Shown here: piece after piece, positions 5,020 through 64,000 of the stretch
Numbering within the stretch: position 1 is the first letter of the stretch
How the letters are laid out: each line of letters opens with the position of its first letter
Origin: Shigella phage vB_SflM_004
Sequence record: MK295205
Direction: 5' to 3' (one strand)
Length of the DNA: 64,000 nucleotides
The notes under the pieces: model-generated
Database searches by the model: none
Told to the model about the DNA's origin: nothing
The model's input: the letters and a program-made list of their open reading frames with translations, nothing else
Translations under genes and position numbers: made by a program

Positions 5020-5021
5020 GA

Positions 5022-28114: not shown

Positions 28115-28137
28115 TACTCCGGGATTAAGCAAGATGC

Positions 28138-45885: not shown

Positions 45886-45888
45886 GCT

Positions 45889-46158: not shown

Positions 46159-46699
46159 GGTTTTTTCTATCAAGAACTCGATACTGCTTCTCTGAAAGAT
46201 TTGCAAACTTACAGAAACGACGAACAAAACGCATGTGTCGTGATTTTACTCGTGGTAACCATTTTGCTGCCAGAGCAGACGTGTTAGGGTCTAACAGTGC
46301 AGCTTCTAAATGCTTGAAAGCATCTGTTTCGTAACGTGTACCAACAAAGATTTTGAAGTCGTCGTAACGACCTAAGTCAGAAATCTTATCCATGATACGC
46401 AATACTTGGAACTCATCAAGTATACCATCAGAGATTGCCTTGGTAAGAGTATAACGGAACGCTTTGCGCTCTCCCATACCTTCTCGTGCATCTCGCATGT
46501 GTAACAGGATTCGAACTGCTACATCAATGTCTTCTCGCATAGCCTTGTAAAACAAGTTTGGAAGACTCTCTACATTTGACCTGCTTGAACCAGCAGCTTT
46601 GTAGAAATCTACCAGTGCAGACATTGAAGAGGTGTGGTTAACAGCACCGTTTTCAGTTAAACCTGCATGTAGATGCGAGTGTTTAAATAATTCGCTCAT
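46148..46699 (-). CDS. hypothetical protein (possibly N-terminal fragment of a larger gene)
   Basis: 183 aa; GLTENGAV...RILLHMRDAREGMGERKAFR is reminiscent of TROVE/DUF2828-type N-termini (weak, from memory); ORF ends where the lipoprotein block begins. Confidence 0.35.
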   Translation of the reverse strand: MSELFKHSHLHAGLTENGAVNHTSSMSALVDFYKAAGSSRSNVESLPNLFYKAMREDIDVAVRILLHMRDAREGMGERKAFRYTLTKAISDGILDEFQVLRIMDKISDLGRYDDFKIFVGTRYETDAFKHLEAALLDPNTSALAAKWLPRVKSRHMRFVRRFCKFANLSEKQYRVLDRKNLTQ

Positions 46700-46951
46700 A
46701 TTAATTCTCTCTCGTTAGAATGTTTTGGTGAGACAGACTCTAACGTTTGATTCAGAACCTGTCAACACCTTTTTATTATTTTTTCAGAGTTGCTACAGCA
46801 GAGAACGTTGGTTTGTTTTCCTGTGGCTTATCTCCACCTTTCTCACCGCTATTCTTACTGTCTGCTGCAATGGCTTTCATCTCACCTGCTGAGTGAGTCA
46901 TGATAGTCTTACCAGCTTCCATCATTGACTTCAGGTTTACGTTATCAACCG

Positions 46952-47146
46952 TCAAACCAAACTCTTGAGCTTGTTCGCATTGCTGGTAACAACTGCCTCA
47001 AACAGCTTTGCAGCATACTCTGCTGAGTTGTCAATAGTCAACTGTGCCTTGACCAGTGAACTTTTGTTACGAGAACCCTTTGGTCTTCCAGATGGGTTAC
47101 CTGATTGGCCTTTCTTGAACTGGCCTTTGTTAGTTCGTTTAGTCAT
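46952..47146 (-). CDS. hypothetical protein with GNPxGRPKG N-terminal motif
   Basis: KGQFKKGQSGNPSGRPKGSRNK; reading frame appears to shift downstream (46760-46950). Confidence 0.35.
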   Translation of the reverse strand: MTKRTNKGQFKKGQSGNPSGRPKGSRNKSSLVKAQLTIDNSAEYAAKLFEAVVTSNANKLKSLV

Positions 47147-47322
47147 TTCTTCACCTCTTTTAAGACTTCTTAAAAGGCTTTTAAGATAAGAGATAGATAT
47201 CCAGAAAGATATCTGTTTAAATAGCCTTTTTAGAAGAGTCTTTTAAGTAATCTTCTAAGTGTTTTATTAGGCTACACGTTGTCAAGAGGAATGTCAAGTA
47301 AATTTTTTAGTTGCAATACTTC

Positions 47323-47351
47323 TTGACTTGTTGTATGGATTACTGTACCAT
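47323..47351 (+). promoter_or_regulatory. sigma70-like promoter
   Basis: TTGACT, 17-nt spacer, TACCAT; precedes AAGGAGA SD and ATG at 47396. Confidence 0.4.
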
Positions 47352-47395
47352 CTTACTAAAGCTGTAGGTCTGCCTTTATCTACAAAGGAGACTTA

Positions 47396-47557
47396 ATGAG
47401 AAACAACACGAAATCGAAGACAGGTAATAATACCAATCACTGTAAGGAATCAAAGCGGGTAGAATTACTCTATTACAAATCCTCTGAAATTGGTTTGTAC
47501 CTATACTTTCAAAATTATAGACGACAAGAGGATTATTTATGTGTAGCTCCCAACTAG
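47396..47557 (+). CDS. hypothetical small protein (below track cut-off)
   Basis: 53 codons, strong SD AAGGAGA 7 nt upstream. Confidence 0.35.
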   Translation: MRNNTKSKTGNNTNHCKESKRVELLYYKSSEIGLYLYFQNYRRQEDYLCVAPN

Positions 47558-47772
47558 AAATCACAGATATTATTGATTTATACCAAACTGCAAAGAGTCA
47601 TGGGTATATCACTTCAATTGGAAAGAATAAGCACTATGATGCACTAACTGGTATGTATTTCAGAGCAATAGCTCAATCTAGTGAACAGGTTCTAATGGTT
47701 TCTTCCAGTGAATTTGCTTCATTTCTCTATTGCAGCAAGATTATCAATCGTAGGAGAACTGATAAATGTTAA
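47539..47772 (+). CDS. hypothetical protein
   Basis: 77-aa ORF. Confidence 0.4.
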   Translation: MCSSQLEITDIIDLYQTAKSHGYITSIGKNKHYDALTGMYFRAIAQSSEQVLMVSSSEFASFLYCSKIINRRRTDKC

Positions 47773-48134
47773 ACGTGAGTTTTAATTATAATGGTGATGG
47801 GTCTGTATCAATCACTTCACCATATTCTGATGACCTTCTTAAATGGTTGGACTTACACTGTGGAAGAGGTATGCACTACGTACCTAATTCATTTAAACAG
47901 AAAACAATTGCAAATAACTTGATGCGTGTTACTGTTCAGTCAATGAACCCAGATTATAACATTGATGGTGAAAGCCCATATTCACTTATGGCTTTAGGTG
48001 CTAATAGTGAATTTAAACTGGTGTGTCATGATTCAGAAACATTCTTCAAAGTATTCTCAAATCTTATCCACAATGCTAAATACAGTTATGTAGCTGGTTC
48101 AGCATCATTCCAGCAAACTACACATGTGTTATGA
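47766..48134 (+). CDS. hypothetical protein
   Basis: 122-aa ORF. Confidence 0.45.
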   Translation: MLNVSFNYNGDGSVSITSPYSDDLLKWLDLHCGRGMHYVPNSFKQKTIANNLMRVTVQSMNPDYNIDGESPYSLMALGANSEFKLVCHDSETFFKVFSNLIHNAKYSYVAGSASFQQTTHVL

Positions 48135-48352
48135 TTGATAACCTCAGAGAGTCTGAAGATACTTCCACAGAGATTTCTTTCGATGTGAACACCTCTCCAG
48201 AGTCCACTCCAAGTAATGACTTCGACATGAACTATGCGTTATCTCTGAGTAAGAAATCTGATTTCATTGAGTACGTCAATGGATTTGGATTTAAGTTGGA
48301 TGAGACAATGAATCTCAAAAAACTTAAAAACATGCTTAAGACTATGGCTTAA
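48131..48352 (+). CDS. hypothetical acidic protein
   Basis: 73-aa ORF. Confidence 0.4.
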   Translation: MIDNLRESEDTSTEISFDVNTSPESTPSNDFDMNYALSLSKKSDFIEYVNGFGFKLDETMNLKKLKNMLKTMA

Positions 48353-48360
48353 GTTTTATA

Positions 48361-48381
48361 GGGGCTGATGCCCCTTTAATT
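48361..48381 (+). terminator. putative terminator
   Basis: hairpin GGGGC-TGAT-GCCCC followed by TTTAATT. Confidence 0.45.
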
Positions 48382-48398
48382 ATTTATAAGGATATTTA

Positions 48399-48743
48399 AT
48401 GAAAGCTAAGAGTGGAAAAGACTTTTATTGCTTCCTACAATCTTATGTCCAAAGTGTTCAAGAAGGTGACAGGTATAATCTTGATGATGTACTTCCGACA
48501 CCCTTAACATGGCGTGATAGCAAATGGCCTGAGAAGGATATCAACCCTACCGAAACATATTCCGAATACACACCTAAAATTCCTCTACCAGATACTGAAG
48601 AACTTCTTTACCCAATGTTTCATATCGTTGGTCTTGGTACATTTTTGATGGATATTCATAAGTTTGATGTTGCTGGCGATGTTTCTCCGCATCACAAAGG
48701 CTATTTTAGACTAAACGCACATTTAGAGGCTAAAAAGAAATGA
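48399..48743 (+). CDS. hypothetical protein (tandem paralog A)
   Basis: 114 aa; shares RY(N/D)...LP(T/L)..WPE.DI...YTP...EELLY with next gene. Confidence 0.45.
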   Translation: MKAKSGKDFYCFLQSYVQSVQEGDRYNLDDVLPTPLTWRDSKWPEKDINPTETYSEYTPKIPLPDTEELLYPMFHIVGLGTFLMDIHKFDVAGDVSPHHKGYFRLNAHLEAKKK

Positions 48744-48994
48744 TTAAAGCAAAGACTTACCCAGACTTCAAAGAGTTTGTTAAAGACTTTGTAGCGAATG
48801 TTAAAGCTGGCAAAAGATACGACTTCAGAAAGTATCAAGAGGCCGTTCTGCCTCTGACATATAGCTCACCGTGGCCTGAGTCTGATATCCCTGAAGTCTA
48901 CACACCAGATTATACAGTTCCATTTAGTGAAGAACTTTTATATTCAGTTGGTGCTCAGATGAGGACTGCTGACTTCTTCATGGATTGGTGGTAA
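48740..48994 (+). CDS. hypothetical protein (tandem paralog B)
   Basis: 84 aa; ATGA overlap with paralog A. Confidence 0.45.
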   Translation: MIKAKTYPDFKEFVKDFVANVKAGKRYDFRKYQEAVLPLTYSSPWPESDIPEVYTPDYTVPFSEELLYSVGAQMRTADFFMDWW

Positions 48995-49139
48995 GAGAAA
49001 ATGACTGTAGAAGATGACACAGTTTATTGTGAATGGTTGGCAAGGGTTAAACCTTTCTCCATGCTTAATGCAAAATTTAAGAACGCAATCACACCTCCAG
49101 TTCTTACAGAACAACTGACCAAACTGATGGTGAGCTTGA

Positions 49140-49470
49140 AACATTCATTCTTCGTGTTGATGGTACTGGTGCAACTGGTTATCAGTGGAAGAAAGGTGCA
49201 TCAAACATCTCTGGAGCAACCTCTGCAACATATACTAAGAATGGCGTAGTCCCTACTGATAGCTATTCCGGTGTCGTTGTGGGTCAAACTGTTTCTCCAA
49301 CACTGCTACAGTAACTGTGAATGCACTGCCTGTGATTACACAGCAACTAACCAAGAGATTACAGAGGGAGATACACTTACCCTTAGTATTGTAGCAACTG
49401 GTGCAACTGGTCACAAACCAGATAAAAATGACTTAGAGCTTTACGCATGTAATGCTTGCAATACTTGCAT
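49140..49470 (+). pseudogene. fragments of an Ig-like domain protein
   Basis: out-of-frame pieces DGTGATGYQWKKGASNISGATSATYTKNG and TVNALPVITQQLTNQEITEGDTLTLSIVATGATG typical of bacterial Ig-like repeats; no intact ORF. Confidence 0.4.
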
Positions 49471-49512
49471 CTCAATCTTCCAAGGTAGTTATTAATGCAG
49501 TAGGAGCATAAA

Positions 49513-49957
49513 ATGCAACTCTCAAGTAAAGGCTTAGAAGCCATTAAGTTCTTTGAAGGGTATCACTCAGAGGTTAAAAATGACAATTCTGTAATCCCTA
49601 CAATTGGTTATGGTACAATTCGTATCAACGGAAGACCTGTTACGATGGGGATGAAGATTACTGCCGAGCAAGCTGAACAATATCTCCTTGCAGATGTTGA
49701 GAACTATGTAGGTGCACAAACAAAATAAAGACGGCTCTTTTAACGTAGAATGAGTTTGATGCACTTGTTGTAGAGACTTACAACATTGGCATCGGTGCTA
49801 TGCAGGATTCAACTTTTATCAAGCGTCATAATGCTGGTAACAAAGCTGGTCATGCGCAGTGGTGGAACAAGATTACAGTGAATGGTCAAAAAGTAACTTC
49901 CAAGGGTCTACAAAATAGACGTAGTTTGGAAGCCAAGATTTACCTTGACGCTGTTTA
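49513..49957 (+). pseudogene. lysozyme (GH24 type) interrupted at 49720-49750
   Basis: N-terminus LEAIKFFEGY...PTIGYGT...ITAEQAEQYLL in frame 1; conserved C-terminus (NEFDALVVETYNIGIGAMQDSTFIKRHNAGN...) resumes in another frame after a ~27-nt foreign segment that recurs near 45630. Confidence 0.55.
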
Positions 49958-49974
49958 TCCAAAATAGTAGATTA

Positions 49975-49999
49975 AGAGGCTCCTTCGGGAGCCTTTTTT
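49975..49999 (+). terminator. rho-independent terminator
   Basis: hairpin GAGGCTCC-TTCG-GGAGCC followed by TTTTTT. Confidence 0.65.
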
Positions 50000-50005
50000 A
50001 TTTCT

Positions 50006-50416
50006 ATGGAGAAAACTATGAAACTTTGGGCTGATGATGTTGGGACTTTTAAGTACACAAGAAGTGGTATGAAGGTTCGTATTGCAGGAACCAAGTTGAT
50101 TGCTGTAGGTGACAAAGTTATTACAACCTTTACTGTAGAGCTTGTTGAGCTGTCGCCTATCACAATGGCTAACAAAGGCTTCTTTGCTGGTGAACTGTAC
50201 AACGTGGATGACAATGGTATGTTCTCACCTTTAGGTGAAAGTTCTCTTGATATTATTTCAGAACACCCCTTGACAAGAGAGCAGTTATCAGGTTACTATA
50301 AATTTCTACTTGAGAAGCAGAAGGAAGTACACAATCGTGAGGCTATTTACCATAACAATGAGTGTATCAAACTTCTGGATAAAATTGAGAAAGCTGAGAG
50401 AGGTTTTTATGAATAA
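50006..50416 (+). CDS. hypothetical protein
   Basis: 136-aa ORF. Confidence 0.45.
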   Translation: MEKTMKLWADDVGTFKYTRSGMKVRIAGTKLIAVGDKVITTFTVELVELSPITMANKGFFAGELYNVDDNGMFSPLGESSLDIISEHPLTREQLSGYYKFLLEKQKEVHNREAIYHNNECIKLLDKIEKAERGFYE

Positions 50417-50738
50417 CGAGATTCAAGTAAAGGTTGACACATTTGGTCATGATGGCGATGTATATCGTGGCTTGGCAAAAGCAATCATCTTCCAAGAAGA
50501 CGGGAGACTGAAGTTGCAGTTTGAATCAGGAAGCATCTTAGAACACAGTGGCGATGATGCAGATGGTTGTCCAATTTTTGGATGGTTTGACCTGAATTTT
50601 CATCTTTATGCAATCCACTACCCAGATGGTGGAGAAGACTGGACAACTCAATCTATCTTTGATGAACTGAATGGTGTACCTTGTTTCAGAACCAACCCTT
50701 CTAACTTTCACCTTCATCAAAGAAGAAAAAGTTGGTGA
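50409..50738 (+). CDS. hypothetical protein
   Basis: internal ATG (MNNEIQVKV) overlapping upstream stop. Confidence 0.4.
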   Translation: MNNEIQVKVDTFGHDGDVYRGLAKAIIFQEDGRLKLQFESGSILEHSGDDADGCPIFGWFDLNFHLYAIHYPDGGEDWTTQSIFDELNGVPCFRTNPSNFHLHQRRKSW

Positions 50739-50783
50739 TATCTCCGTAACAGAAGCTTTGCAAGTTACACAGGTAATCTGATA

Positions 50784-51077
50784 ATGAGTAAAGTACAGGT
50801 TATTTTCCCTATTTGTGACTTCTCACTAGAGCCTGAGTTTGACCTGTACGAAGAACTTACTGATGATGTTATCTGGGGTGTAGTATCAAAGGCCATTAAG
50901 AAACTCTATGGTGGCCTTTTAAACCCAAACAATGCAAAGGTATCTACAAAGCAAGTATCTGAACCGTACACCAGTTATGATGCTGAGAAACGTAAGTTTG
51001 AGATTACTTGCTATGACCTTCTTGTTTCTGAGAACAAAATCAACTACTTCTTCGTCAGAGAATATGCAGATGCTTAA
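50784..51077 (+). CDS. hypothetical protein
   Basis: 97-aa ORF. Confidence 0.4.
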   Translation: MSKVQVIFPICDFSLEPEFDLYEELTDDVIWGVVSKAIKKLYGGLLNPNNAKVSTKQVSEPYTSYDAEKRKFEITCYDLLVSENKINYFFVREYADA

Positions 51078-51414
51078 GCTCCACATCGTTGTTTATAAGA
51101 ATTTCGCAGATATACAAGAAGCCCTGTCATCAAAACTTGACAGGTCTTATCAAAGACTCTTTGTGATGTTTGACATGGTTGACGGTAAAGAAAATGGCAA
51201 GATGATGTTTGAAGAGTATACAGCAGAACCTAAAAGCCAAGACTCGGTGACAATCTTCGTAAAACATGATTTGTCATCTAAGAACATTGGTCTGCTGGAG
51301 TTCTATATCTTTAAAGCTACAGGTATGCGTGGCGAAAACATAAAAGTGGACTCTATAGAGGTTTTTGAGAAACCTAACACACCACTTAAAAAGTATTTAG
51401 TGAGGAAGTTATAG
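51064..51414 (+). CDS. hypothetical protein
   Basis: internal ATG (MQMLKLHIVV). Confidence 0.4.
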   Translation: MQMLKLHIVVYKNFADIQEALSSKLDRSYQRLFVMFDMVDGKENGKMMFEEYTAEPKSQDSVTIFVKHDLSSKNIGLLEFYIFKATGMRGENIKVDSIEVFEKPNTPLKKYLVRKL

Positions 51415-51557
51415 TATGAGTGTACACATCGGTAAAAAGAATGAGCGTAATGCTCCACAAGTAACACTGGTACAACACTTTGGAAACATTCAAGGTGTAC
51501 TGGCTGCATTTCAACCATCTATCACATCACCTGCAAAAGTTGCCAAATTGACTATGG

Positions 51558-51896
51558 ATGGAACAGCATATTGAAGAAGTTCAATACTTTAAATTCACAG
51601 ATAAAGAGGTTGATGAGGCACTTCTGAAGTACCGTTTAGACCTTGAGAAAGACATTAACCACCAAGAGCTTGTAACACTGTTTGGTGACCTTCACAAGCT
51701 TCTTGAAAAGGTTATGAAGCGCACATACTACATGAATAATGGTTCAATCGTCACCACTCTGATTTCACCGTTCACTGATGAGGTGATTTTGACAGATGAT
51801 AAGCAGTTCTTTGTCATGACTGCCTCAAGCTCAGATTGGTGGATGAAGAACACAGGTATGAAGACGATACTGCTTCAAGCTCAGATTGGTGGATGA
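51558..51896 (+). CDS. hypothetical protein
   Basis: 112-aa ORF; 3' end lies in a tandem duplication. Confidence 0.4.
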   Translation: MEQHIEEVQYFKFTDKEVDEALLKYRLDLEKDINHQELVTLFGDLHKLLEKVMKRTYYMNNGSIVTTLISPFTDEVILTDDKQFFVMTASSSDWWMKNTGMKTILLQAQIGG

Positions 51897-51920
51897 AGAA
51901 CACAGGAATGAAGACGATAG
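51828..51920. repeat. tandem direct duplication of ~46 bp
   Basis: ctcaagctcagattggtggatgaagaacacagg.atgaagacgata occurs twice back to back. Confidence 0.8.
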
Positions 51921-51975
51921 CTCTCTTTGAAGTTGCTGCTAAGTATAAAAAGCAAGTTGCTGCCTAGAAAATATG

Positions 51976-52004
51976 CTTGACAGTAATATCTAGAATTTTG
52001 TATG
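51976..52004 (+). promoter_or_regulatory. sigma70-like promoter
   Basis: TTGACA, 17-nt spacer, TATGAT. Confidence 0.55.
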
Positions 52005-52081
52005 ATGGGAGCTATCGAAAGGTAGTTCCCTTTTTTATTGGAGAGATAAAACCGTCAAAGTTAAAGAGTCAGATAAAGGTT

Positions 52082-52471
52082 ATGCTTACACAAAAGAGTC
52101 CAGCCCAAAGAACTAAGGCATTTGTTACGTATGTGTCTGATAGCGGGGTAGTATACTTTAGACCTGTGAAGAATATGCACTTCAAGTTGTACCCAGATTC
52201 ACCAAATCCCTTAGAAGGTCACTTGTGGGCTGGTAAAATCTATTCAACTGCTGATATTGAAAACTTAACCTTCACAGGAAGCTTCAGAAAGATTCTGGGT
52301 ATTGCCTTGGCAGACACTGGTATCGTTAAAGATGAAGATGCACAGAATACTGAGAAGGTAACTTTTGAGGCAACTCCGACTCTGAAGAAAGAGGCAACTC
52401 CAAAGGTTAGAACGATTGATGTTACTATAGAGGCTCCTACACACAGACTTTCAAACTCACGTTGTAGATAA
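52082..52471 (+). CDS. hypothetical protein
   Basis: internal ATG (MLTQKS) downstream of the promoter; track ORF starts inside the promoter. Confidence 0.4.
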   Translation: MLTQKSPAQRTKAFVTYVSDSGVVYFRPVKNMHFKLYPDSPNPLEGHLWAGKIYSTADIENLTFTGSFRKILGIALADTGIVKDEDAQNTEKVTFEATPTLKKEATPKVRTIDVTIEAPTHRLSNSRCR

Positions 52472-52523
52472 TGCTGAGGAGTACTTTAAACAGTTCTGTA
52501 ATCCTAATCCACACCACCATAAC

Positions 52524-52748
52524 TTGATTCCACCACAAAAGAAATTCAACTCAATGTTGACTAGTACTTGTGAAGATGCTAAAAAGAATGTGGAAGAACT
52601 AAAAGAAGCAATCAGTGTCACAGACCATGTGGTTAATAAGAATGACATTGAGTACACAGTAAGAATGATGTTAAAAGCTGGTTTCACACCTTATCAGATT
52701 GCTGAAGAGATTCAAAGGCAATTCTACAACGCAATGGTGAAAGAATGA
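52524..52748 (+). CDS. hypothetical protein
   Basis: 74-aa ORF. Confidence 0.4.
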   Translation: MIPPQKKFNSMLTSTCEDAKKNVEELKEAISVTDHVVNKNDIEYTVRMMLKAGFTPYQIAEEIQRQFYNAMVKE

Positions 52749-52922
52749 AAAGATGTACAGCTTCAGACGAGCTAAGAAGACTAAACAGTGTTATGGCAAA
52801 ATTGCCAGAGGTGATATCTTAGTATGTACTGAAGAATCACTTAAGAACGTTACTCCCAGAGGTAAAGTCCTGCAAAGACTTGTTGACCTTGAGTGGAACA
52901 AAAGATTGAGAGGGATTGAACA

Positions 52923-53309
52923 ATGATTTACGAAGATTCAAGAGACCAGATTTCTTATGAGAAATCAAGACACCATGTATCTTTCAAGATTGTGAAAGCA
53001 AATGGTGAAGAAGGAACTATTTCACACTTCGGAGGTGAAAATTGGTTTGCGCATGATGCTGCAAAGGTTAGCCATGCAAAGTATCTGAAGGCTTTCTACA
53101 GAGACTTCCCTGCTGATTACAACGAGCTTATCAATCTGGAAAATAAATGTAGAAGTGCTGAGCATAATACAAGAGGGTGGGCAGGGATAGCAATCATGTT
53201 ATCTGTATTCCTTGCTATGATTTGTGTAATCTCCTTCGGTGGCATGTACATGCAGGATTTAACGTTTAATCAAGCTCAACCGAAACTTGATGGTGTCCGA
53301 TTCCAATAG
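52923..53309 (+). CDS. hypothetical membrane protein
   Basis: 128 aa with C-terminal transmembrane segment GWAGIAIMLSVFLAMICVISFGGMYM. Confidence 0.45.
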   Translation: MIYEDSRDQISYEKSRHHVSFKIVKANGEEGTISHFGGENWFAHDAAKVSHAKYLKAFYRDFPADYNELINLENKCRSAEHNTRGWAGIAIMLSVFLAMICVISFGGMYMQDLTFNQAQPKLDGVRFQ

Positions 53310-53491
53310 TTGGTATCAGCCTCTCGTGTTGGAGAATGACGACTTACAAGAAGAGAATTGTAGGATTTCAAGGCAATTTTGAAGAGGTCAGTAGAGAATG
53401 CAACCTTGAGTATTGGCAGTGTATTTACAGCATATTCTCGTGAAAATACTAACAAGGCAATCTTAAAAGATGCCTATGGAGAAACTAAGTA

Positions 53492-53722
53492 ATGATTAGA
53501 ACACCTGTCAAGCCTTTTGGCTTTAACACTCTGGAAGAGTTTACAAAATCCCTACTGAAAGGCTTCTACAACGAACAGCCAGTAACAGTGATTAAGTCTG
53601 ACTTGTCAGAACTTCTTGATATGGTTATCAAGGCAACTTCTGAGAAGGAACCTGAGCAGGAACCTAAGAAGAAAGATAAAAAGGCTTCTTCAAAGAAAGA
53701 TAAAGAATCTGTTGAAGAGTAA
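53492..53722 (+). CDS. hypothetical protein
   Basis: 76 aa, Lys/Glu-rich tail. Confidence 0.4.
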   Translation: MIRTPVKPFGFNTLEEFTKSLLKGFYNEQPVTVIKSDLSELLDMVIKATSEKEPEQEPKKKDKKASSKKDKESVEE

Positions 53723-53765
53723 TCTGTCAAGGGGTGTAAAAGCCCCTGTTTAGAGGTAGCGAAAA

Positions 53766-54209
53766 ATGGAACTAAAGAAATTTGAAATTGTGTCTCTTGT
53801 CAATTATACAACAAGAGAACGTGTAGCCCTAGGTACAGTCAGAGAGATTGACCACAGCCGTTACCCATTTTCAATAGAACTTGCTAATGATTTCAAAATT
53901 GGAGAGGGTGATGATGAAATGTCCTTTAAGTGTGGAGAGATTATCACTTTTGATAATGACCTTCTCTACAGAGGTATAGCACATGCTGACCACAAAGGTT
54001 TTGATATCCAGATTGCAATGTTTGATGAGAAAGATGTAAGTGGGGTTTGCACATATAGTATCCTTCAAGAAGATATTGCTAAAGAAATCTTAGAAATGTC
54101 TGTTAAGATTGATAATGCACTGGAGCCGTTGCTTCCATACTTAAAATCTGGTAAGTTATCTAGACAAGCACTTTTGAATATCATTGATATAAAAATTTCT
54201 AAAGGTTGA
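53766..54209 (+). CDS. hypothetical protein
   Basis: 147-aa ORF. Confidence 0.45.
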   Translation: MELKKFEIVSLVNYTTRERVALGTVREIDHSRYPFSIELANDFKIGEGDDEMSFKCGEIITFDNDLLYRGIAHADHKGFDIQIAMFDEKDVSGVCTYSILQEDIAKEILEMSVKIDNALEPLLPYLKSGKLSRQALLNIIDIKISKG

Positions 54210-54313
54210 CTAATACCTGACATTATGGCAATGTTAAAGGTATCCATCCTCCAAAGGGTGGTTGGAAAGATAACACTTTCTACATCGTTGAAGTTGCTTA
54301 CAAGCCACTTAAC

Positions 54314-54508
54314 ATGATTCATAAAGCAATGTTCTACACAGGGCTCCACAAAGATGTTGATGAATTTGATGGTTACAACTGGCTTATGAATGGTGGTTAT
54401 GAAGAACTTTGCAATATTCAAGAAGCTTATTACTTGAAAGCTATTGCAGAGTTACCTGACGAGTTTCAAATTGAGAGAGATGAGGATTGGAAAGATGAAG
54501 AATGTTAA
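54314..54508 (+). CDS. hypothetical protein
   Basis: 64-aa ORF. Confidence 0.35.
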   Translation: MIHKAMFYTGLHKDVDEFDGYNWLMNGGYEELCNIQEAYYLKAIAELPDEFQIERDEDWKDEEC

Positions 54509-54959
54509 AGAGGTAGTGCGTAAAGCTTTGCTTAACAACGGAACTAAAGATGATATGTACAAAGATATCGTTGCAGAATTTGGTTGTTCAAGACATGCTG
54601 CAAAGGTTCTTCTTCATAGCTTTATCTGGGAGTGTTCAGAAGCTTACATGGTTCATGCAGCTTTTTCAGAATCTCACTTACAAGCCGATAAAGACTTGTT
54701 AGCACCATATGACTTACGTGAACAAGAGCATGAAAGTGCCATTAAAACAAACACTGTGTACATGATTAGAGACACTCATACAGATTTGGTAGTAGCAACT
54801 ATCAAGATTGAGAGGGAAGTTCCTGATTGTGGTTTTGAAGGTGATATTAATAGTGCAGATTTAGACACGGTATTCAGTCGTGGTGGAAGATGGTTGGTAG
54901 GTTATGATGGTTATATCACAGTTGATTACCAACGTTCAAAGTATCAGATTAAAGTGTGA
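54495..54959 (+). CDS. hypothetical protein
   Basis: internal ATG (MKNVKEV) overlapping upstream stop. Confidence 0.4.
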   Translation: MKNVKEVVRKALLNNGTKDDMYKDIVAEFGCSRHAAKVLLHSFIWECSEAYMVHAAFSESHLQADKDLLAPYDLREQEHESAIKTNTVYMIRDTHTDLVVATIKIEREVPDCGFEGDINSADLDTVFSRGGRWLVGYDGYITVDYQRSKYQIKV

Positions 54960-55327
54960 TTATGGGACACCTACTGAAGAAGAGTTGGAAGAACTTAACA
55001 GATATGGTTCCCCATCTGAAGAGGAAGAGAAAGAACTCCGAAGAATGGGAAGCAATTACTAAGAAATGTTTTAAGGATTTGATAGAGATGAAAAAGTTTA
55101 ACTTAAAAGAAGTTGAAGGTAACTACTTAGTACTTGACTGGGGTGATATTCGGGAAGCACTCTCCGAAGAAAATCTTGACTGGTTCGAACAAATTATCGT
55201 TAATCGACTTAAGATGGAACGAGAAGATTCAGGTAAAGAGCCACTTGAAGGTATCTTTGTCAAGAAATCTTATCCGTTCTTTGAAGATACTTTGAAGAGA
55301 GATTTATGCTCATGGGTGGGACTGTAA
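54956..55327 (+). CDS. hypothetical protein
   Basis: 123-aa ORF. Confidence 0.4.
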   Translation: MIMGHLLKKSWKNLTDMVPHLKRKRKNSEEWEAITKKCFKDLIEMKKFNLKEVEGNYLVLDWGDIREALSEENLDWFEQIIVNRLKMEREDSGKEPLEGIFVKKSYPFFEDTLKRDLCSWVGL

Positions 55328-55679
55328 AGAGTTCTCTATGATTTCTCTTGGTGGACAACAAATGCTGGTTATAGAAGATATTGTCTCTAAACCAACAAAG
55401 GTGTTTGTATCAAGGTCACAGGTAAAGAAGAATTTGTTGAATATGACATACTCAGACACATTATAGATGGTTTGGGTGTTGTACAAAAATGAAGACAATT
55501 CTGACAGACACTTGCTCAAGTTTTACGATTCAGGTAAGAGAACGTCATAGTGGGTTCACACACTTCTTCCAGACTTCTAAAACTTCATTGCAAGCCATGC
55601 TTAGTGAATTGATGTAAGACTATACAGCCCCTTAAAATGGATTCGATAGAATCTATCTCATAGGGGCTTTTTATTGAGT

Positions 55680-57300
55680 AAATTTACGAAATTTATAATT
55701 TTTATAAAATTTGGGATTCACTCCGTTCATCTTGGGTCACCATGATATTGGTACGATATCTGTGACAGTACTAAGACATGGCCTGAGCGTAGTCTCTATA
55801 TAGTATTATATAGTATCTATATACTAAACACTCTTCTAACAAGCCCTCTTAACAACCTATACAATCACCTTAATAACCTCTTCCTAGCCCCTTAGAAGCC
55901 CCTATACTCATCTTAATCTCTAGGTAAACGATAGTACCCTATATAGCAGAATCACTAGATATTATTGAGACTTATATAGACTGTTATATAGCACTAAACA
56001 GGTATTCCCTGTAAAGGCTTATCCTACAAGGTCTAACACGGTACTAACAAGGTCTCTTATAAGCCTGTTAATTCCTGTTTTATATAAGATAGTGTATAGA
56101 TAGTTATTCAGAATTATAAAATTTTTATAAAATAGACTAGGTAGGTCACCATTGAATGACTTTAGAGACGGGAAAAATATCTGTCTAGTTGATTCGGTAG
56201 AATCTACCTCATGATGTATATCTGCTTGGTAGCCCTTAACAGCCCTGTAAAGTTGTTCCTGTTAAGTCTCGAAATATCATTAACAATCTCTTAACAACTC
56301 TTCCAAGTTCGTTCAGAGTTCTTAACAGTCTCTTAACAGAACTAACAAGAGCTTAACAAGTCCTTAACAGTCAATACATAGTCTTTACAGAGGCTTAACA
56401 GATGACTAACAAGTTGCTAAATAGTAAATTCTTGGGAAGAGTTTGATGAAGCTCATGATAAGTGGGTTAACAAGTTCTAAACCTTTTTAACAAGCTATTA
56501 ACATGGTCACTATCTCTTGGTCTATAGTTCCCTTCCCTTCTTAGTGATTCTCTATAAAGCCCTCTTAAAAGCTCTCTGTAGCTCTGTATAGCCTCTTCTA
56601 AGATTCTCCCTAGTAACTACACCCCAACTACCTGTATAGCTCTTTATAGGGCTTTCTAGAGGCTAAGTTTGAAGGTGCAATGTACCGTTCAATCTCTGAA
56701 GAATCTTTCTACGAGGATTTAACAAGGGGCTAACAAGTCTCTAATAAGCATAACTATGTTGTCACCGTTCATACTTCTTGATTAAACACAAGAAGATGCA
56801 CACTTTTACGTTACTTTTAAGCATCTTTTACGTTACTTTTAAGCTCTTTTTAGACTCCATAGAAGAGTTTAAAGTGACTATCAAGCCCCTGTTTAACCAT
56901 TCACAAGATTCTATCCAGCTTATAAGCTTATACCCTTATAAGATTCTTTTAAGGCTCTAGAAAGCTCTATAAAGGGCTTTTAAGAGTAGGTTAATATGAT
57001 TGCTTAAGATGAGATGATAAGCCCGTATAGAGCGTTATAGAGCGTTTTAGAGATTGCCCTTCCCTTTCGGGTTATGGGCTTATATTTAAGTTGATTTGAT
57101 AAGAGGATATAGAGTAAGCTATAGAGTTATTGTTCTAAATGTATGAGATAGGTTCTATCAAGGTAACTCATTACCTGAATCACTATCGAATCAATGGTAT
57201 GAGTCTAACTTGTTAGATGAATCGTTCAAGATTCTAGGAAGGGTTTAGATAGACGTTAAAAAGCCCCATCTAAGGGGCTGTAAAGGTGTCAAGACCGATA
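55680..57300. repeat. 1.6-kb non-coding region dense in short repeated words
   Basis: no ORF of 60 codons or more on either strand for ~1.2 kb; more than 15 copies of CTTAACA(A/G)-type words, clusters of TATATAG/TATAAAG, 20-bp direct repeat ttacgttacttttaagc x2, paired aatttataatttttataaaat motifs about 420 bp apart. Confidence 0.7.
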
Positions 57301-57318
57301 AGCCGTTGCGGCGACTTG

Positions 57319-57570
57319 TTAGTTATTGAAGCCGTCAACTTCATAGTAAAGCGTGATAAGAGAATCACCCCAATAGTAAGAGGATTTGCCATCCTTTAAG
57401 ACTTCTTGTTTTACTTCTTTCCAGAACCACTCAGATTGATTGTGGTCATGGCAAGTTCGTTGTAGAGACATATCAACCATGCCAAAAACATCGCCAGTTC
57501 CAACCATATCAAATTTAACATCTAATACATGGAAGCCAAAATTGTTAACAGTTGCGTGGATAGTAGCCAT
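57319..57570 (-). CDS. hypothetical small protein
   Basis: 83 aa; preceded by conserved leader element. Confidence 0.45.
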   Translation of the reverse strand: MATIHATVNNFGFHVLDVKFDMVGTGDVFGMVDMSLQRTCHDHNQSEWFWKEVKQEVLKDGKSSYYWGDSLITLYYEVDGFNN

Positions 57571-57640
57571 TTTCAGATTCTCCAGTTTAGGATTGTTTAG
57601 GTTCTAAATAGTAGGGGCTTTTACACCCCTTGTCAACACT
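57571..57640 (-). promoter_or_regulatory. conserved leader element (SD-containing), copy 1
   Basis: minus-strand ...AACAATCCTAAACTGGAGAATCTGAAAATG. Confidence 0.55.
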
Positions 57641-57936
57641 TATTAGATAACTTTCTTATAAGAGTTACCAGATAAGATATAGTTAGTAACTGAGTGATTT
57701 AGTAAGTCTACACCAGTGATAACTACCGTTTCTTCATTTTTTCTTTCTTCGTGCTCTTTTTTCATCTCTTCCTAACGTCTAGCACCAAATTTACTAATCA
57801 TACGCTGTTCAAAATTCATCTTTCTAGTCTCCAGTTTAGGAATTTAGGTTAGTGGGGAAGTCTCCCTCCCCGTTGAAAGTAATATTAATTCATTGCGGCG
57901 TATGTTGCAAGTCTTTTGTAGATGTCTCATGGAAGA

Positions 57937-58149
57937 CTACTCATGAGAAGAAACAGTATACTTTACAATTGCTTCAGATTTAGTTAGACCAAAATGGCTT
58001 ACGATTTCACCATTCATGAATCCAACTACCTCATAAGATTCTGCGATGATTTCCCCGTTAAACCAGTCACTTTCTATACGTTTGCAAAGTTGGATATCTT
58101 CTTTGTCAGTACCAATCTGTAACAGGATAGTGATTTCTGCGTTATTCAT
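57937..58149 (-). CDS. hypothetical small protein
   Basis: 70 aa. Confidence 0.45.
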   Translation of the reverse strand: MNNAEITILLQIGTDKEDIQLCKRIESDWFNGEIIAESYEVVGFMNGEIVSHFGLTKSEAIVKYTVSSHE

Positions 58150-59860: not shown

Positions 59861-60397
59861 TTATTTGTAGTAATAATATGTAAACTCATTTATCAGGCTT
59901 CCATCCTCATCATTATACTGCTTATGACTAGCCAGATAACCGCCATTAGCTAGAATTTCATCAATCAACTTTTTAGCGTCATCGTTGGGAATCCTAACAG
60001 GTTTACTAAACGGCTGTAAATAGGTACGACGAACATTTGAGAATTTAAAATCAATGGTTTTTACGTTAAGAACTTGCAACATTTTTTGAATCTCCAGTTT
60101 AGGATTGTTGGGATGTTTCCCGTTGATGAATACTTTACTTTCTTGCGCAGTCTTCAAGTGATTCTGGAAAACACCATAATCATGAGTCCTTTTATTTTCT
60201 AACATGACACCTAATTGTGACTCTTGTAAGGCTATAGCTGCTAAAGGGATTCCCCAACCTTTTCCCATCTGTCCTTCGCCATAGTTATATGCTTTTAACA
60301 TATTTACTTTCTGACTGATTGTAAGTTCTGGACAGTCAGATGCTGTAGCTAAATGTGCTGTAAAGAATAAGCACAAACCTAAAACAAATTTCTTCAT
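59861..60397 (-). CDS. secreted protein with lytic transglycosylase-like motif
   Basis: signal peptide MKKFVLGLCLFFTAHLATA; AIALQES...GVFQ resembles SLT-domain catalytic motif; a copy of the conserved leader lies in frame inside the ORF at about 60083-60130. Confidence 0.45.
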   Translation of the reverse strand: MKKFVLGLCLFFTAHLATASDCPELTISQKVNMLKAYNYGEGQMGKGWGIPLAAIALQESQLGVMLENKRTHDYGVFQNHLKTAQESKVFINGKHPNNPKLEIQKMLQVLNVKTIDFKFSNVRRTYLQPFSKPVRIPNDDAKKLIDEILANGGYLASHKQYNDEDGSLINEFTYYYYK

Positions 60398-60458
60398 TTG
60401 CACTCCTATTTTGTTAAACATGCAGACAATTATACATCATCCTGCACATTTTTCAAAT

Positions 60459-60481
60459 AAAAAAGGCTGCCGAAGCAGCCC
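60459..60481 (-). terminator. rho-independent terminator after rIIB
   Basis: minus-strand hairpin GGGCTGC-TTCG-GCAGCC followed by TTTTTT. Confidence 0.65.
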
Positions 60482-60497
60482 TTTAGGAATTTACTTA

Positions 60498-61619
60498 TTA
60501 TACTTCACGTTTACGCTGAGAAATCAGTTCACCAGCAGTCCCTACAACTACATGAAGTGCTTCTGAACCATCCCACTCTTTGATGACTTCACGGCGACTA
60601 TTCACAATCGCTGCAACTTCATAACGTGAAGCTCGCATTTTCATATCGTTGTAGTCAGTTGGTACTGAAACAACATCACGAGGATGAACACGAACTTTCA
60701 GGATAGTGTCACCAGAGAAGCTAGTTACATAGTCCCAAGCCCCAACATGCAGACCCTGAGAGCATGTTACATGACGGTTATTATCAACCATCCAACGTGG
60801 CATCTCAACAATGTTACCCAAATCGTTTGGAACTTTGCAGGTACGAGAGTCAAACAGTTTATCACTACGAGTTGTGACTTTCTTCCAACCGATGATATAA
60901 CCTTCTTCATCAATTTCAACATCAAGGTGTGATACAAAGCCCCAAAGCTGTTCTACAGAGTCTTTTGATGGGTTTTCCATCAGTTTTTCGAAGAATGCAA
61001 TCAGACGGGTAAAGCCTTCATCACCTTTCTTCATCATGTCCAGAATACGGTCTACCAGAGTTGAACGCATTTGAACAGCACCGTAGTACAGGTTATCACC
61101 TTTAATGGTCACAGCACCCTGAGTAAAGTTCTCAATGGATTTGCGAATATTCATCAGTTCAAAGGCTTTCTTGTACTCACCTGATACAACAGCCATAACA
61201 ATTTCAGTGTAGTTAGGGTGAGTTGATTCAACAATCTCTGACTCTGCACCGAAAGTCATGATAACCGAGTCACCAGTAATCATGTATTCAATCTGACTAT
61301 TATTCTGCATTGCTTCGTGCAGAGCATTTACAGGTTCTGCTTTGACTGCTTCTTTAACAGCTTTTGCAACAGGTTTCTGAGTAGCTACCTTTTTAGTTGC
61401 TTTAGCTTTCTTAGCACCCTTTGCAATATCTTTCAAAGTCTTCGCAGGTTTTGCTTTGGTTTTCCCTGTCAGTAAAGTTGCTTCATGACGCTCTACAGCA
61501 CGACCTACAGAACGAGTTGAAGTATTGTACTTCAGAGCAATTGCAGTTTTGGTAAGTTTACCTTCTTTAACCAGTGCGTAGATTTCTGCGTCGATTTGTG
61601 CTTTAGTCTTAGTAGTCAT
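60498..61619 (-). CDS. rIIB: rIIB-like protein
   Basis: colinear similarity to T4 rIIB as recalled: LVDRILDMMKKGDEGF, PRWMVDNNRHVTCSQGLHV, VRVHPRDVVSVPTDYNDMKMR; Lys/Ala-rich linker after N-terminal domain. Confidence 0.8.
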   Translation of the reverse strand: MTTKTKAQIDAEIYALVKEGKLTKTAIALKYNTSTRSVGRAVERHEATLLTGKTKAKPAKTLKDIAKGAKKAKATKKVATQKPVAKAVKEAVKAEPVNALHEAMQNNSQIEYMITGDSVIMTFGAESEIVESTHPNYTEIVMAVVSGEYKKAFELMNIRKSIENFTQGAVTIKGDNLYYGAVQMRSTLVDRILDMMKKGDEGFTRLIAFFEKLMENPSKDSVEQLWGFVSHLDVEIDEEGYIIGWKKVTTRSDKLFDSRTCKVPNDLGNIVEMPRWMVDNNRHVTCSQGLHVGAWDYVTSFSGDTILKVRVHPRDVVSVPTDYNDMKMRASRYEVAAIVNSRREVIKEWDGSEALHVVVGTAGELISQRKREV

Positions 61620-61691: not shown

Positions 61692-61708
61692 ACTCCTTGT
61701 CAAATACT

Positions 61709-64000
61709 TTAATCGTAAATTGTAGTCCCTTCTGGAACACACTTCACATCAAAGCCTAAGAACTTACTCACTTCGATGGGTGACACTTTATTCCAATCTA
61801 AATGAGAAAGCAAGAAGTTTTCTTGTTTTCTTTTTGAAAGGTAGTTTGTCACCTTAATAACCATACGGTCACCAGCTTTCTTAATTTTCTTGTACAGCTT
61901 TGTATCATTGTCAAGGCACTCTTTCAAAGTTTGCAACCGACTAATAGTGTAAGTGTATGCAAACTGTGCAGCAACGTATTGGATTTTACCGAACATTGCC
62001 TCTACAGCCTCTTCATTACCTTCTAGGAAGATAGTTTTGTTTGTATCCCGTGAATAGCAATAACCACGAGAAATCTTCCTATTATTGAATGTAAAGTTTC
62101 TGGCAATAATCCAGCTACTTGTAAGGTCAAGAACACCATTCATGTAGATGCGTGTCATATACCTGTTATGATTAATCCAATGAACATCAGTTAAGCTGTC
62201 GTTCAAGAGCTTCTCATCTACTTCAATCCAGTCTTCTGGTATCTTTTTCCAATTTGCTTTTCGGAAAACATAGACTGTCTTCCCAATAACATTAGCAACT
62301 GACTTAGCTACATCCTCTGGAGATGAGCAAAAACATCTACCATCAACTGTGTCACCTACTGCCTTAATATAAAGCTGAGACTCTTCAATTGTGTCTAAGT
62401 CCTCTGACACCTCTTTGTAGGAGGCTACACCTTCTGCTGGAACAGCTTTCCAGAGTTTTACAACACCTCTTACAGCTTCTTTACGCTGGTAATGGTGTTC
62501 CTTATCAGACATTTTCACAATCTTTAACAAGCTTTTATCAAGTTTGTGCAGATTGATTAAGTCATCTAACTCTTTTTCAGTCGAGAATACAAACACAATA
62601 CCATTGTATCTGTGAAACAGGCTTGACTCACTGGCGTAGTCTCGACATGCACCACGCAGAATCTGATTGCGGCCTACAGTCTTCTCAGTTCCGTTTTTAT
62701 TGCGACGGTCATTAATCACAAACAAAAACTGTTCAATTTGGCTTTTACGCATTGCACCAAAGATATTGAACATGCTCGCCTCTTGAGTGTAGGAAAGTGC
62801 TGTTGCACGAATCTTACTCTCTAAAGAGTTGAACTTAACATAAGCAACTGGATTGTATAGGTAGTCCACTTTAGGAATGTTGTTTCCTTTACTGTCAACC
62901 TTAATATTACCTTTGCCGTCACGTTCATAGATGACTGAGCCGTCTTCTGCGTAGATAATTCCACGACGAATGTTTAACAATTCTTCTTCCAGAGAGTCAA
63001 GCTTAACACCTCCCCACTCTAGCTTTGGACACACAGCATTAAACATCTCTCGTGAGTTCAAACGTAACTCTGCATAAGCCTGTGCAGCATCCATAAGTGT
63101 AGGTTGGCTATTAACTCCCTTAATAACATCCCTTGTAATTGCTTCAGTTATCTTTTTGGTAGCCTCAATGATGACATTTTTTGTCGTGTCATTCATCTGC
63201 AATGCTTCACGAGAAGCTGCAATAGCGACTGAACCAATAGGCATGTAGATGTTTACAAGGTCTACGCTCCTACGGAAAAATTCTGGCAAGATTTTGAAGA
63301 AATCATCACCAAGTAATGCTTCCATGTTAACAGGGTAGGCAATGTTACCCATCACCACATTAAATTCTGTCCTGTTACCACTAGAACGCCAGCTTTGCTT
63401 ATGAATCATGGCATCATAAACACCCTCTTCACGGGCAATGACGTTCATATCTGCTAATACATCGTCGTACACAATATTACTTTCTGGTTTTACAGCAAAG
63501 TATGAGTACACATTCCCAGCTTCTTCAAAGAACTTTGAGATACGGTGGTCAGCAACTGCCACACGTACAGCTAAACCATTAGGTTCTTTTGTTGGGTTAG
63601 TTGTCAGCTTAGTTACTTGAGGAATACCATTCTCAAGATAAACAGAGTACTTATTAACAACACCATCAACATAGCTAGATACTGTGAATGACTGAGCAAT
63701 TGCAAATGGTGACTTTGAGCCGATACCCATTGCACCAATGTAATCATTAGAGTCATTCTTCGTAGAAGCTCCGTAGTTCAGATACAAACTCATAACTTTA
63801 TCATGAGTCAATCCAGTTCCAAAATCACGAACTTCGAAGTAAGGCTCAAAACGAGTAGGTAAATGCACATGGAATGGGATGTTCTCTTTTCCAGCTTCTT
63901 TCTGAGCATCTACTGCGTTACATGACAGTTCACGAATCACTGCTCGCTCTTTAAATGTATATACACCAGAACTCAGAAGGCTGAACATTTCAGGTGTCAT
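61709..64000 (-). CDS. rIIA: rIIA-like protein (N-terminus beyond window edge)
   Basis: GHKL-type ATPase motifs near the N-terminal end (ELSCNAVDA, VRDFGTGL, GAMGIGSKS) as in T4 rIIA; ORF is open to the window boundary. Confidence 0.75.
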   Translation of the reverse strand: MTPEMFSLLSSGVYTFKERAVIRELSCNAVDAQKEAGKENIPFHVHLPTRFEPYFEVRDFGTGLTHDKVMSLYLNYGASTKNDSNDYIGAMGIGSKSPFAIAQSFTVSSYVDGVVNKYSVYLENGIPQVTKLTTNPTKEPNGLAVRVAVADHRISKFFEEAGNVYSYFAVKPESNIVYDDVLADMNVIAREEGVYDAMIHKQSWRSSGNRTEFNVVMGNIAYPVNMEALLGDDFFKILPEFFRRSVDLVNIYMPIGSVAIAASREALQMNDTTKNVIIEATKKITEAITRDVIKGVNSQPTLMDAAQAYAELRLNSREMFNAVCPKLEWGGVKLDSLEEELLNIRRGIIYAEDGSVIYERDGKGNIKVDSKGNNIPKVDYLYNPVAYVKFNSLESKIRATALSYTQEASMFNIFGAMRKSQIEQFLFVINDRRNKNGTEKTVGRNQILRGACRDYASESSLFHRYNGIVFVFSTEKELDDLINLHKLDKSLLKIVKMSDKEHHYQRKEAVRGVVKLWKAVPAEGVASYKEVSEDLDTIEESQLYIKAVGDTVDGRCFCSSPEDVAKSVANVIGKTVYVFRKANWKKIPEDWIEVDEKLLNDSLTDVHWINHNRYMTRIYMNGVLDLTSSWIIARNFTFNNRKISRGYCYSRDTNKTIFLEGNEEAVEAMFGKIQYVAAQFAYTYTISRLQTLKECLDNDTKLYKKIKKAGDRMVIKVTNYLSKRKQENFLLSHLDWNKVSPIEVSKFLGFDVKCVPEGTTIYD

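Follow-up and report, generated by a model that had tools for sequence, protein, structure and literature searches.

A Putative Concatemer Junction with a Dense Lattice of Short Words in the Sequence of Shigella Phage vB_SflM_004

Introduction

Several phages of the Felix O1-type myoviruses (Ounavirinae) have been reported to carry short direct terminal repeats (DTRs) at their genome ends. For the Felixounavirus UAB_Phi87, Bal31 digestion combined with run-off sequencing demonstrated a DTR of 608 bp (PMC4837284), while in the record of the E. coli phage Pr103Blw (also a Felixounavirus) a 581-bp "short direct terminal repeat", derived by PhageTerm (PMC8303462), is annotated at both ends, and the genome paper of Felix O1 inferred short terminal repeats from genome size (PMC3185647). 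Two further records carry identical repeats at both ends, of 570 bp in Citrobacter phage HP1 (Mooglevirus) and of 444 bp in Erwinia phage M7 (Kolesnikvirus). Here, we analyze a gene-free region, at positions 55618–57318 of a 64,000-nucleotide stretch of Shigella phage vB_SflM_004 (sequence record MK295205; this whole stretch is referred to as the window), which by homology would belong to the terminal-repeat regions of the Ounavirinae, and is thus of a kind already known. It resembles the described repeats in the length of its putative DTR (~572 bp), in its homology at 72–88%, in a left boundary that is the same to the base, and in its setting between convergent genes. Unlike natural Ounavirinae DTRs, however, the copy in the window has had its right boundary and three internal blocks overwritten by fragments of a DNA ligase gene.

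Phages of this type are widely used in Salmonella and E. coli typing, in biocontrol and in therapy. In the literature searched, only the existence of the short terminal repeat is described, and not how packaging recognizes and cuts the DNA: papers on Ounavirinae DTRs report the length of the repeat but neither a lattice of words nor inverted terminal words, and no description of such word arrays was found (a weak negative, as most subscription journals lay outside the search).

The closest functional analogue appears to be the concatemer junction of phage T7, which, like the region in the window, is gene-free and holds a short exact terminal repeat flanked and entered by many copies of a short word, mostly in one orientation. 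In the T7 sequence that we examined, 7-nt words (CCTAAAG) in one orientation flank and enter the 160-bp terminal repeat at a spacing of 13 bp; the arrays are reportedly the SRL and SRR of Dunn and Studier. The differences are nevertheless considerable, with ~16 words of one class over 0.6 kb in T7, compared to several word classes and >100 units of 6–9 bp over 1.5 kb here, spaced at 10–11 bp. The Ounavirinae lattice is several times the size of the T7 arrays and, unlike them, keeps to the helical repeat and has inverted words at its ends; whereas the early promoters of T7 direct transcription outward from the left end, here transcription ends in both flanks. T7 is moreover a podovirus, unrelated to the Ounavirinae myoviruses, and, since both word and spacing differ (CCTAAAG versus CTTAACA and others), the resemblance is one of analogy only.

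Repeated short words also flank the cleavage site in the R-sites of lambda cosB (with IHF), the hexamers of P1 pac and the pacL/pacR boxes of SPP1, where the small terminase binds the words and bends or wraps the DNA. These systems differ from the present region in having 3–7 words over 100–200 bp and in serving cohesive-end or headful packaging rather than exact repeats, and no IHF consensus site such as accompanies lambda cosB is present in the region. Finally, the type II plasmid centromere R1 parC comprises ten 11-bp iterons bound by ParR, and by analogy a small DNA-binding protein could line one face of the helix on tandem 11-bp units and assemble into a higher-order filament. The parC array is nevertheless far shorter and functions in segregation, and no ParR- or ParM-like genes are found among the genes and annotations near the region in the window.

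Results and Discussion

Genome Ends of Relatives Map within the Gene-Free Region

The reading we favor, with a probability of roughly 0.8, is that of a concatemer junction (genome-end region) in a Felix O1-type myovirus, closest to Mooglevirus, with the short words as putative protein sites. The region matches 265–283 Ounavirinae records, of which 191 cover at least 80% of it at 72–88% identity. Mooglevirus matches are 84–88% identical, and ~190 Felixounavirus and Suspvirus records are 72–76% identical over >80% of its length. Many deposited genomes start or end within the region, invariably at one of two points, namely window positions 56228 and ~56760–56800 (positions 549 and ~1080–1120 of the query). 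We placed the DTR by homology to Pr103Blw, HP1 and the record ends of pEP20, CRP22 and MET-P1-301; UAB_Phi87 was excluded from this check of the boundaries, as its record starts elsewhere than at the terminal repeat. The 581-bp repeat of Pr103Blw and the 570-bp repeat of HP1 both align across positions 56228–~56799. The comparison with terminal repeats of related phages suggested in the initial annotation thus finds homologous annotated DTRs, and its proposal of a packaging site agrees with the physical genome ends of relatives mapping inside the region.

The left cut site, at 56227|56228, reads GTATATCTGCTT|GGTAGCCCTTAACA, a sequence that the window and 11 relatives share without change. The right cut site falls at ~56799|56800, from alignment only, because the local sequence of the window has been overwritten: relatives read ..TGTTAAGGGGGC|TAG..TTTACGT at this point, which is not found in the window, and carry three inverted TGTTAAG words followed by GGGGGC at the right end of the DTR. 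At the two cut sites of enterobacterial relatives, the inward-reading sequences ..gctt|GGTAGCCCTTAACA.. and ..gcta|GCCCCCTTAACA.. present one word as an imperfect inverted pair, and both chromosome ends in the natural relatives read ..GCCC(C)CTTAACA.... That the same word faces inward at both ends suggests that oppositely oriented copies define both cut sites. With the ends of relatives aligned to both boundaries, the left flank (55.68–56.23 kb), the ~572-bp repeat and the right flank (56.80–57.30 kb) together are, as judged by this homology, a concatemer junction.

The Region Lies between Two Convergent, Terminated Gene Blocks

No credible gene is present at 55618–57318, which lies between the last plus-strand gene (ending at 55617) and the first minus-strand gene (57319–57570). 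The long stretch devoid of open reading frames (ORFs) that was noticed initially is real, with ~1.16 kb lacking any ORF of at least 60 codons. The only ORFs of at least 30 amino acids are at 55711–55803 (30 aa), at 56778–56960 (60 aa, with a TTG start, no Pfam match and a position spanning a repeat boundary), and two short ones at the right edge. The 3-nt periodicity of coding sequence is absent from the region (lag-3 z = −2.5), and its G+C content of 0.35 is the lowest locally, compared to 0.39 in the neighborhood.

Each of the convergent gene blocks flanking this ~1.7-kb non-coding stretch ends at a terminator. In Moogle and Michonne, both hairpins carry a terminator annotation and no coding sequence is consistently annotated between them, and the equivalent site in Felix O1 is the gp23/gp24 gap, where one of its two convergent junctions lies. 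We note that a simple terminator rule (consensus scan) failed on both of these long-loop hairpins annotated in relatives. The loop of the left hairpin holds a 22-nt palindromic mini-element (55640–55661), an insert that is absent from Sf17 and SUSP1.

This setting bears directly on the suggestion, also made in the initial annotation, that the region is a cluster of phage promoters or other regulatory sites, with TATATAG and TATAAAG as late-promoter-like boxes. The TATA-rich words do resemble the core of the T4 late promoter, and one weak sigma-70-like site (55683–55710) overlaps a conserved AT-rich motif. However, a consensus scan gives 7 sigma-70-like sites where 6.2 ± 2.4 are expected, and one word per 11 bp is far too dense for promoters. 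Furthermore, the neighboring blocks both point inward and stop at terminators, and there is therefore nothing downstream to transcribe. We consequently regard a promoter cluster as very improbable.

A similarly low probability is assigned to one or more structured non-coding RNAs. Such an RNA would fit with the length of the conserved non-coding stretch, and the conserved G+C-rich block at 57052–57103 could form a small hairpin, but no Rfam match was obtained at E ≤ 1 on either strand of 55400–57500, and an ARAGORN scan of the whole window returned zero tRNAs. In addition, terminators precede the region on both sides, and its conservation tracks the 11-bp word lattice described below rather than paired helices.

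Short Words Recur at a Spacing of 10–11 bp

Word counts and spacing were compared with those in 2000 first-order Markov simulations of the region, based on its own dinucleotide content. In the region versus the other 62 kb of the window, there are 8 versus 5 occurrences of CTTAACA[AG], 13 versus 39 of TTAACA, 17 versus 45 of TAACA[AG], 14 versus 54 of TATAG, and 5 versus 5 of TATATAG. The 17 occurrences of TAACA[AG] compare with a simulated mean of 1.25 (maximum 7), such that none of the 2000 simulations reached the observed number, and the word is strongly biased in strand, with 17 copies on the plus strand versus 4 reverse complements. The count of more than 15 CTTAACA(A/G)-type words given in the initial annotation thus holds for the loose form of the word (17), but not for the strict form (8).

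The main regularity, which the initial annotation did not mention, is that the units lie 10–11 bp apart, close to one turn of the DNA helix. The identity of the region with itself at a lag of 11 is 0.361, compared to 0.271 ± 0.012 in the simulations (maximum 0.309; z = 7.6), and this signal is echoed at lags of 21, 32 and 42. Tandem Repeats Finder likewise reports ~10 micro-arrays of period 10–11. The analysis of word frequency and periodicity that had been proposed therefore confirms the enrichment and adds the spacing. Of the longer elements, the pair of AT-rich motifs (55688–55710 and 56111–56133) is present as described, with the two copies 87% identical, while the tandem repeat is also present, but as 2.2 copies of a 22-bp unit (56803–56850, 96% match) instead of the 20 bp originally given.

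These repeats raise the third possibility that was offered together with the packaging site and the promoter cluster, namely that of a replication origin, in which the words would be initiator iterons and the AT-rich ATTTTTATAAAAT motifs unwinding sites, and which could coexist with a genome-end function. Tandem short repeats including a 22-bp unit, two invariant AT-rich near-palindromes and the lowest G+C content locally (0.35 versus 0.39) are all in line with an origin, for which an AT-rich element beside repeats of 17–22 bp is expected; here, the AT-rich motifs and the 22-bp repeat are ~700 nt apart. Classical origins such as those of lambda, P1 and R6K have 3–7 iterons of 17–22 bp, however, unlike the >100 units of 6–9 bp found here over 1.5 kb. 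There are also no DnaA boxes in the region and no initiator-like gene adjacent to it: the flanking small hypothetical genes run toward the region, and their annotations include no known initiators. The GC skew, taken from the natural relative Sf15, mirrors only the direction of transcription, and is uninformative. The mapped chromosome ends, moreover, already explain why the region is conserved. We consider an origin unlikely, albeit less so than the promoter or RNA explanations. More broadly, no consensus sites for the host factors IHF, Fis and DnaA, and no Chi sites, were found in the region, either in the window or in the Sf15 copy.

The Word Lattice Is Conserved among Natural Relatives

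The same spacing is found in natural genomes, with lag-11 z-scores of 7.7–11.9 in the corresponding regions of 11 natural relatives, compared to a maximum of 2.6 in other 1.5-kb windows of the Sf15 genome (MF158041). In the Sf15 region, CTTAACA[AG] is enriched 54-fold and TATAG 16-fold. Across relatives, in the left half of the repeat, conservation is 0.96 for the words versus 0.80 for the spacers, and the conservation profile has a spectral peak at 10.5 bp. Conservation is highest at the two boundaries and in a single block of each flank. Between genera, this non-coding DNA is 72–76% identical, compared to 40–58% for the adjacent protein.

These comparisons are difficult to reconcile with functionless DNA, such as decaying pseudogenes or junk intergenic sequence. 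The presence of ligase coding fragments inside the region, and of inconsistent small ORFs annotated there in some relatives, might be taken as signs of decay. However, the ligase fragments are specific to the window, as neither 11 relatives nor the remainder of the Sf15 genome contain them; between genera, the non-coding sequence is kept better than the neighboring proteins; and the words are conserved above their spacers. Ordinary intergenic decay, with words no more frequent than in the background, had been named at the outset as what would count against a functional region, and the enrichment found here is contrary to it. We give decay hardly any weight as an explanation.

The strongest argument for a constrained lattice comes from M7, which shares the design but has no DNA that can be aligned with the region. 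Its exact 444-bp repeat lies inside a 1.9-kb gene-free gap between convergent genes, where the lag-11 z-score is 9.2. One flank contains CTTCTAAG arrays, while TTAACA words occupy the left half of the repeat, and inverted TGTTAAG words its right half and the right flank. The same architecture, comprising a DTR in a convergent gap of 1.6–1.9 kb, TTAACA/TGTTAAG arrays and 11-bp spacing, thus recurs in 11 natural relatives and in M7, and the word lattice is a natural, constrained feature of the family.

A Proposed Role of the Lattice in Packaging

Under the concatemer-junction reading, the middle ~572 bp (56228–~56799) of the replicating head-to-tail DNA would end up at both termini of the packaged chromosome, and the packaging nuclease would have to cut at both repeat boundaries. 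Words of the CTTAACAAG, CTATATAG, CTTATAAG and CTTCTAAG types, in local tandem runs at 10–11 bp, make up the repeat and ~0.5 kb of sequence to either side. A phage protein would bind these words, the most plausible candidates being the small terminase and an accessory end-binding protein. Sitting side by side on runs of 3–8 units along one face of the DNA, this protein could assemble into a nucleoprotein complex by which the junction is marked and cleavage positioned. Cutting by the large terminase would follow at the two boundary words, which are in opposite orientation, and the repeat would need to be duplicated for a copy to be present at both ends, as in other phages with exact repeats. 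Protein binding, the identity of the binder and the positioning of cleavage are all steps that we infer.

Several observations weigh against this reading. First, the DTR of the window is placed by homology to its relatives, and the last ~40 nt of the repeat in the window are ligase codons 272–287, with only the outer side, TTTTACGTTAC, retained. Second, no binding protein was identified: the ORFs of 60–68 aa upstream of the large terminase gene (TerL) in Sf15 and M7, which were considered as small-terminase candidates, belong only to PHROG families of unknown function. Third, TerL and portal of Sf15 are unmatched by tblastn anywhere in the 64-kb window, and, since the start and end of the window meet in Sf15 coordinates, the two genes are more probably missing altogether than situated beyond it. 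Taken together with the overwritten right cut site, this means that the present copy may not function. Fourth, the conservation of the words could partly reflect homogenization of repeats instead of protein binding. Finally, the periodicity is local, which counts against one continuous wrapped superstructure: Fourier power for G/C, TA, AA/TT and CC/GG provides no single coherent helical phase over 1.4 kb beyond that of the genome background. We therefore dropped the model of a continuously wrapped 1.4-kb structure, and favor several separate arrays.

A more specific proposal can be made only tentatively, and we consider it possible but less probable than its alternatives combined: that the 1.5-kb lattice is a distinct, conserved packaging signal of Felix O1-type phages, read by one TTAACA-binding protein that coats the junction, with inverted CCCTTAACA boundary words setting both cuts. 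If so, this recognition system would be much larger than the known cos, pac or T7 sites, and differently organized. The placed repeat, its boundary words and the lattice shared across genera provide a concrete and testable picture of a packaging signal, as well as a practical guide to how the many deposited genomes now cut at arbitrary points should be oriented and where they should be opened.

Ligase Gene Fragments Overwrite Parts of the Region

The initial annotation had reported a match between 55745–55790 and 27990–28035, and interpreted it as the remnant of the 3′ end of an HNH gene. While the match is real (36/42 identical), its interpretation is not supported, as both stretches encode residues 198–212 of a DNA ligase, with the matching sequence giving YWYDICDSTKTWPER. 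The donor ORF (27629–28114) has only a 16-residue match to HNH_3, at 15.4 bits, which is under the Pfam cut-off of 24.8. Its first ~19 codons (27629–27685, MLNSKLQVDHKNGDGWDNR) are an HNH-endonuclease-like piece joined at ligase residue 99, and appear to be another foreign patch, replacing the N-terminal third of the ligase. The ligase at its normal place (27629–28354) is degraded, and its KxDG active-site motif is lost.

Overall, ~20 short, abutting and colinear pieces of the ligase gene are found on the plus strand at 45612–57959, covering residues 1–74, 30–47, 60–72, 113–123, 134–143, 160–212, 227–287 and 293–328; one of them lies at 57442–57469. The blocks of the region that are unlike all relatives are ligase pieces (starting at 55746, 56246, 56424, 56665, 56757 and 57285), with the exception of one that has the Felixounavirus form. 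A further suspected fragment, at 56143–56170, was unconfirmed by alignment. Base for base, the pieces take the place of native sequence, and the stretches affected include the best-conserved blocks, the right cut site and part of a minus-strand gene. Upstream of the region, the homologue of Moogle gp102 and Sf15 gp124 (221 aa; 54956–55617) is broken into three ORFs, with stops exactly at the ligase fragments (55299–55323, 55372–55384 and 55482–55526), and, downstream of it, every amino acid difference between the ORF at 57319–57570 and its Sf15 counterpart is due to ligase pieces. No such pieces are present in the Sf15 genome outside its ligase gene, and no intron-like boundary signals were found around the fragments. 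A search of IMG/VR and JGI metagenome contigs for an exact match to a fragment junction returned none, and exact-protein look-ups of two fragment-bearing ORFs returned no record; a neighboring protein free of fragments matches a Mijalis protein exactly.

In addition, two small genes whose normal place is immediately upstream of the ligase gene (Sf15 36327–36539 and 37148–37339) occur in extra copies elsewhere. These out-of-place copies (36533–36589, 40272–40528, 42114–42207 and 45963–46154) are inside a decayed structural module, and are ordered roughly like the ligase fragments.

The Window Is Probably Not a Faithful Natural Genome

Compared to Sf15, the window resembles a shrunken and closed 64-kb version of an 88-kb genome, in which the window end (Sf15 11596) and the window start (Sf15 11868) lie next to each other. 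Around 6.5 kb and 10.5 kb of the structural module are missing, including the tape measure, the large terminase, the portal and all tRNAs, as well as a further ~9 kb; the missing Sf15 segments are 49.8–56.4 kb, 62.6–73.1 kb (large terminase, portal and all tRNAs), and 87.0–88.5 kb plus 1–7.7 kb. Deletion junctions of the window lie at ~45.4–46.2 kb and 60147|60148. The genes for major capsid, sheath, baseplate, lysozyme and tail fibers are truncated or contain stops. The best matches of the window also switch between genera along its length, in a mosaic: the first 6 kb and the rIIA gene (1–6000 and 61700–64000) are closest to Felixounavirus (91–94%), the terminal region is closest to Mooglevirus (84–88%), and 60148–61599 (1452 nt), directly after the junction of a deletion of ~8 kb, is 100.000% identical to Citrobacter phage Mijalis.

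The window is thus probably not a faithful natural genome, and may be a chimeric assembly, a defective genome, or a computer-generated or edited sequence. A far less likely reading, which we consider scarcely credible, is that a real biological process of patching from a template, rather than an artifact, produced the colinear ligase fragments. Given the fragment overwrites and large deletions, the window cannot safely be used as evidence of natural biology. The natural family genuinely possesses the word lattice and the terminal repeat, whereas only this sequence has the ligase fragments and lacks the right boundary.

Map of Elements

The features of the region are collected in Table 1. In addition to the AT-rich motifs, two blocks of the left flank (55950–55990 and 56018–56072) are nearly invariant across genera. 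The G+C-rich block in the right flank stands out among the AT-rich arrays and is almost invariant across Mooglevirus, Suspvirus and Felixounavirus, making it a candidate recognition site. The copy number of the 22-bp tandem repeat varies, from ~2 in the window and ~2 or fewer in most relatives to many more in Salmonella phage FO1a.

Table 1. Positions of the Elements Recognized in and around the Gene-Free Region of the Window
Feature	Position	Strand	Remark
Terminator hairpin of the plus-strand gene block	55626–55674	+	Stem AGCCCCT/AGGGGCT, then T run
AT-rich near-palindrome, copy 1, GAAATTTATAATTTTTATAAAAT	55688–55710	.	Core ATTTTTATAAAAT invariant in 12/12 aligned phages
Foreign ligase fragment, residues 198–212, YWYDICDSTKTWPER	55746–55790	+	Overwrites array sequence conserved in relatives
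Left-flank word arrays	55790–56110	+	CTATATAG, CTTCTAACAAG, CCTTAGAAG and CTTATAAG units at 10–11 bp
AT-rich near-palindrome, copy 2	56111–56133	.	~95 nt left of left DTR cut site
Mini-element, GATTCGGTAGAATCTACCTCAT	56191–56212	+	At this position in window and Moogle only
Putative DTR, ~572 bp	56228–56799	.	From annotated DTRs and record ends of relatives
(C)TTAACA(A/G) array, left half of DTR	56234–56505	+	Spacing mostly 11 nt, lag-11 identity 0.453
Foreign ligase fragment, residues 227–234, CKVVPVKS	56246–56269	+	
Foreign ligase fragment, residues 238–252, VNSWEEFDEAHDKWV	56424–56470	+	Replaces block conserved in all relatives
Foreign ligase fragment, residues 255–271, KFEGAMYRSISEESFYE	56665–56715	+	Replaces three TAACA units of relatives; homology hits here fall in ligase genes
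Foreign ligase fragment, residues 272–287, CCHRSYFLIKHKKMHT	56757–56804	+	Overwrites right DTR end
Tandem repeat, CTTTTACGTTACTTTTAAGCAT × 2.2, 22-bp unit	56803–56850	+	Begins at right DTR boundary
Right-flank arrays	56851–57134	+	CTTATAAG, CTTTTAAG, CTCTATAAAG, TATAGAGCGT × 2.7
G+C-rich block, GATTGCCCTTCCCTTTCGGGTTATGGGCTTATA...	57052–57103		~250 nt beyond right repeat boundary
Inverted mini-element copy with internal insert	57142–57200	−	Window and Moogle only
Terminator hairpin of the minus-strand gene block	57257–57279	−	Sequence reading and annotation in relatives
Foreign ligase fragment, residues 293–298, GVKTDK	57285–57302	+	

The mini-element (GGATTCGATAGAATCTATCTCAT) is an overlapping palindrome of ~22–25 nt, the presence or absence of which varies by site and by phage. 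It was not found elsewhere in the window or in the Sf15 genome. Its sites comprise 55640–55661, 56191–56212 and 57142–57200 (inverted) in the window, 84340–84361 in Sf15, and others in several relatives, and include the loops of both flanking terminators. Its behavior is that of a small insertion confined to the genome-end region.

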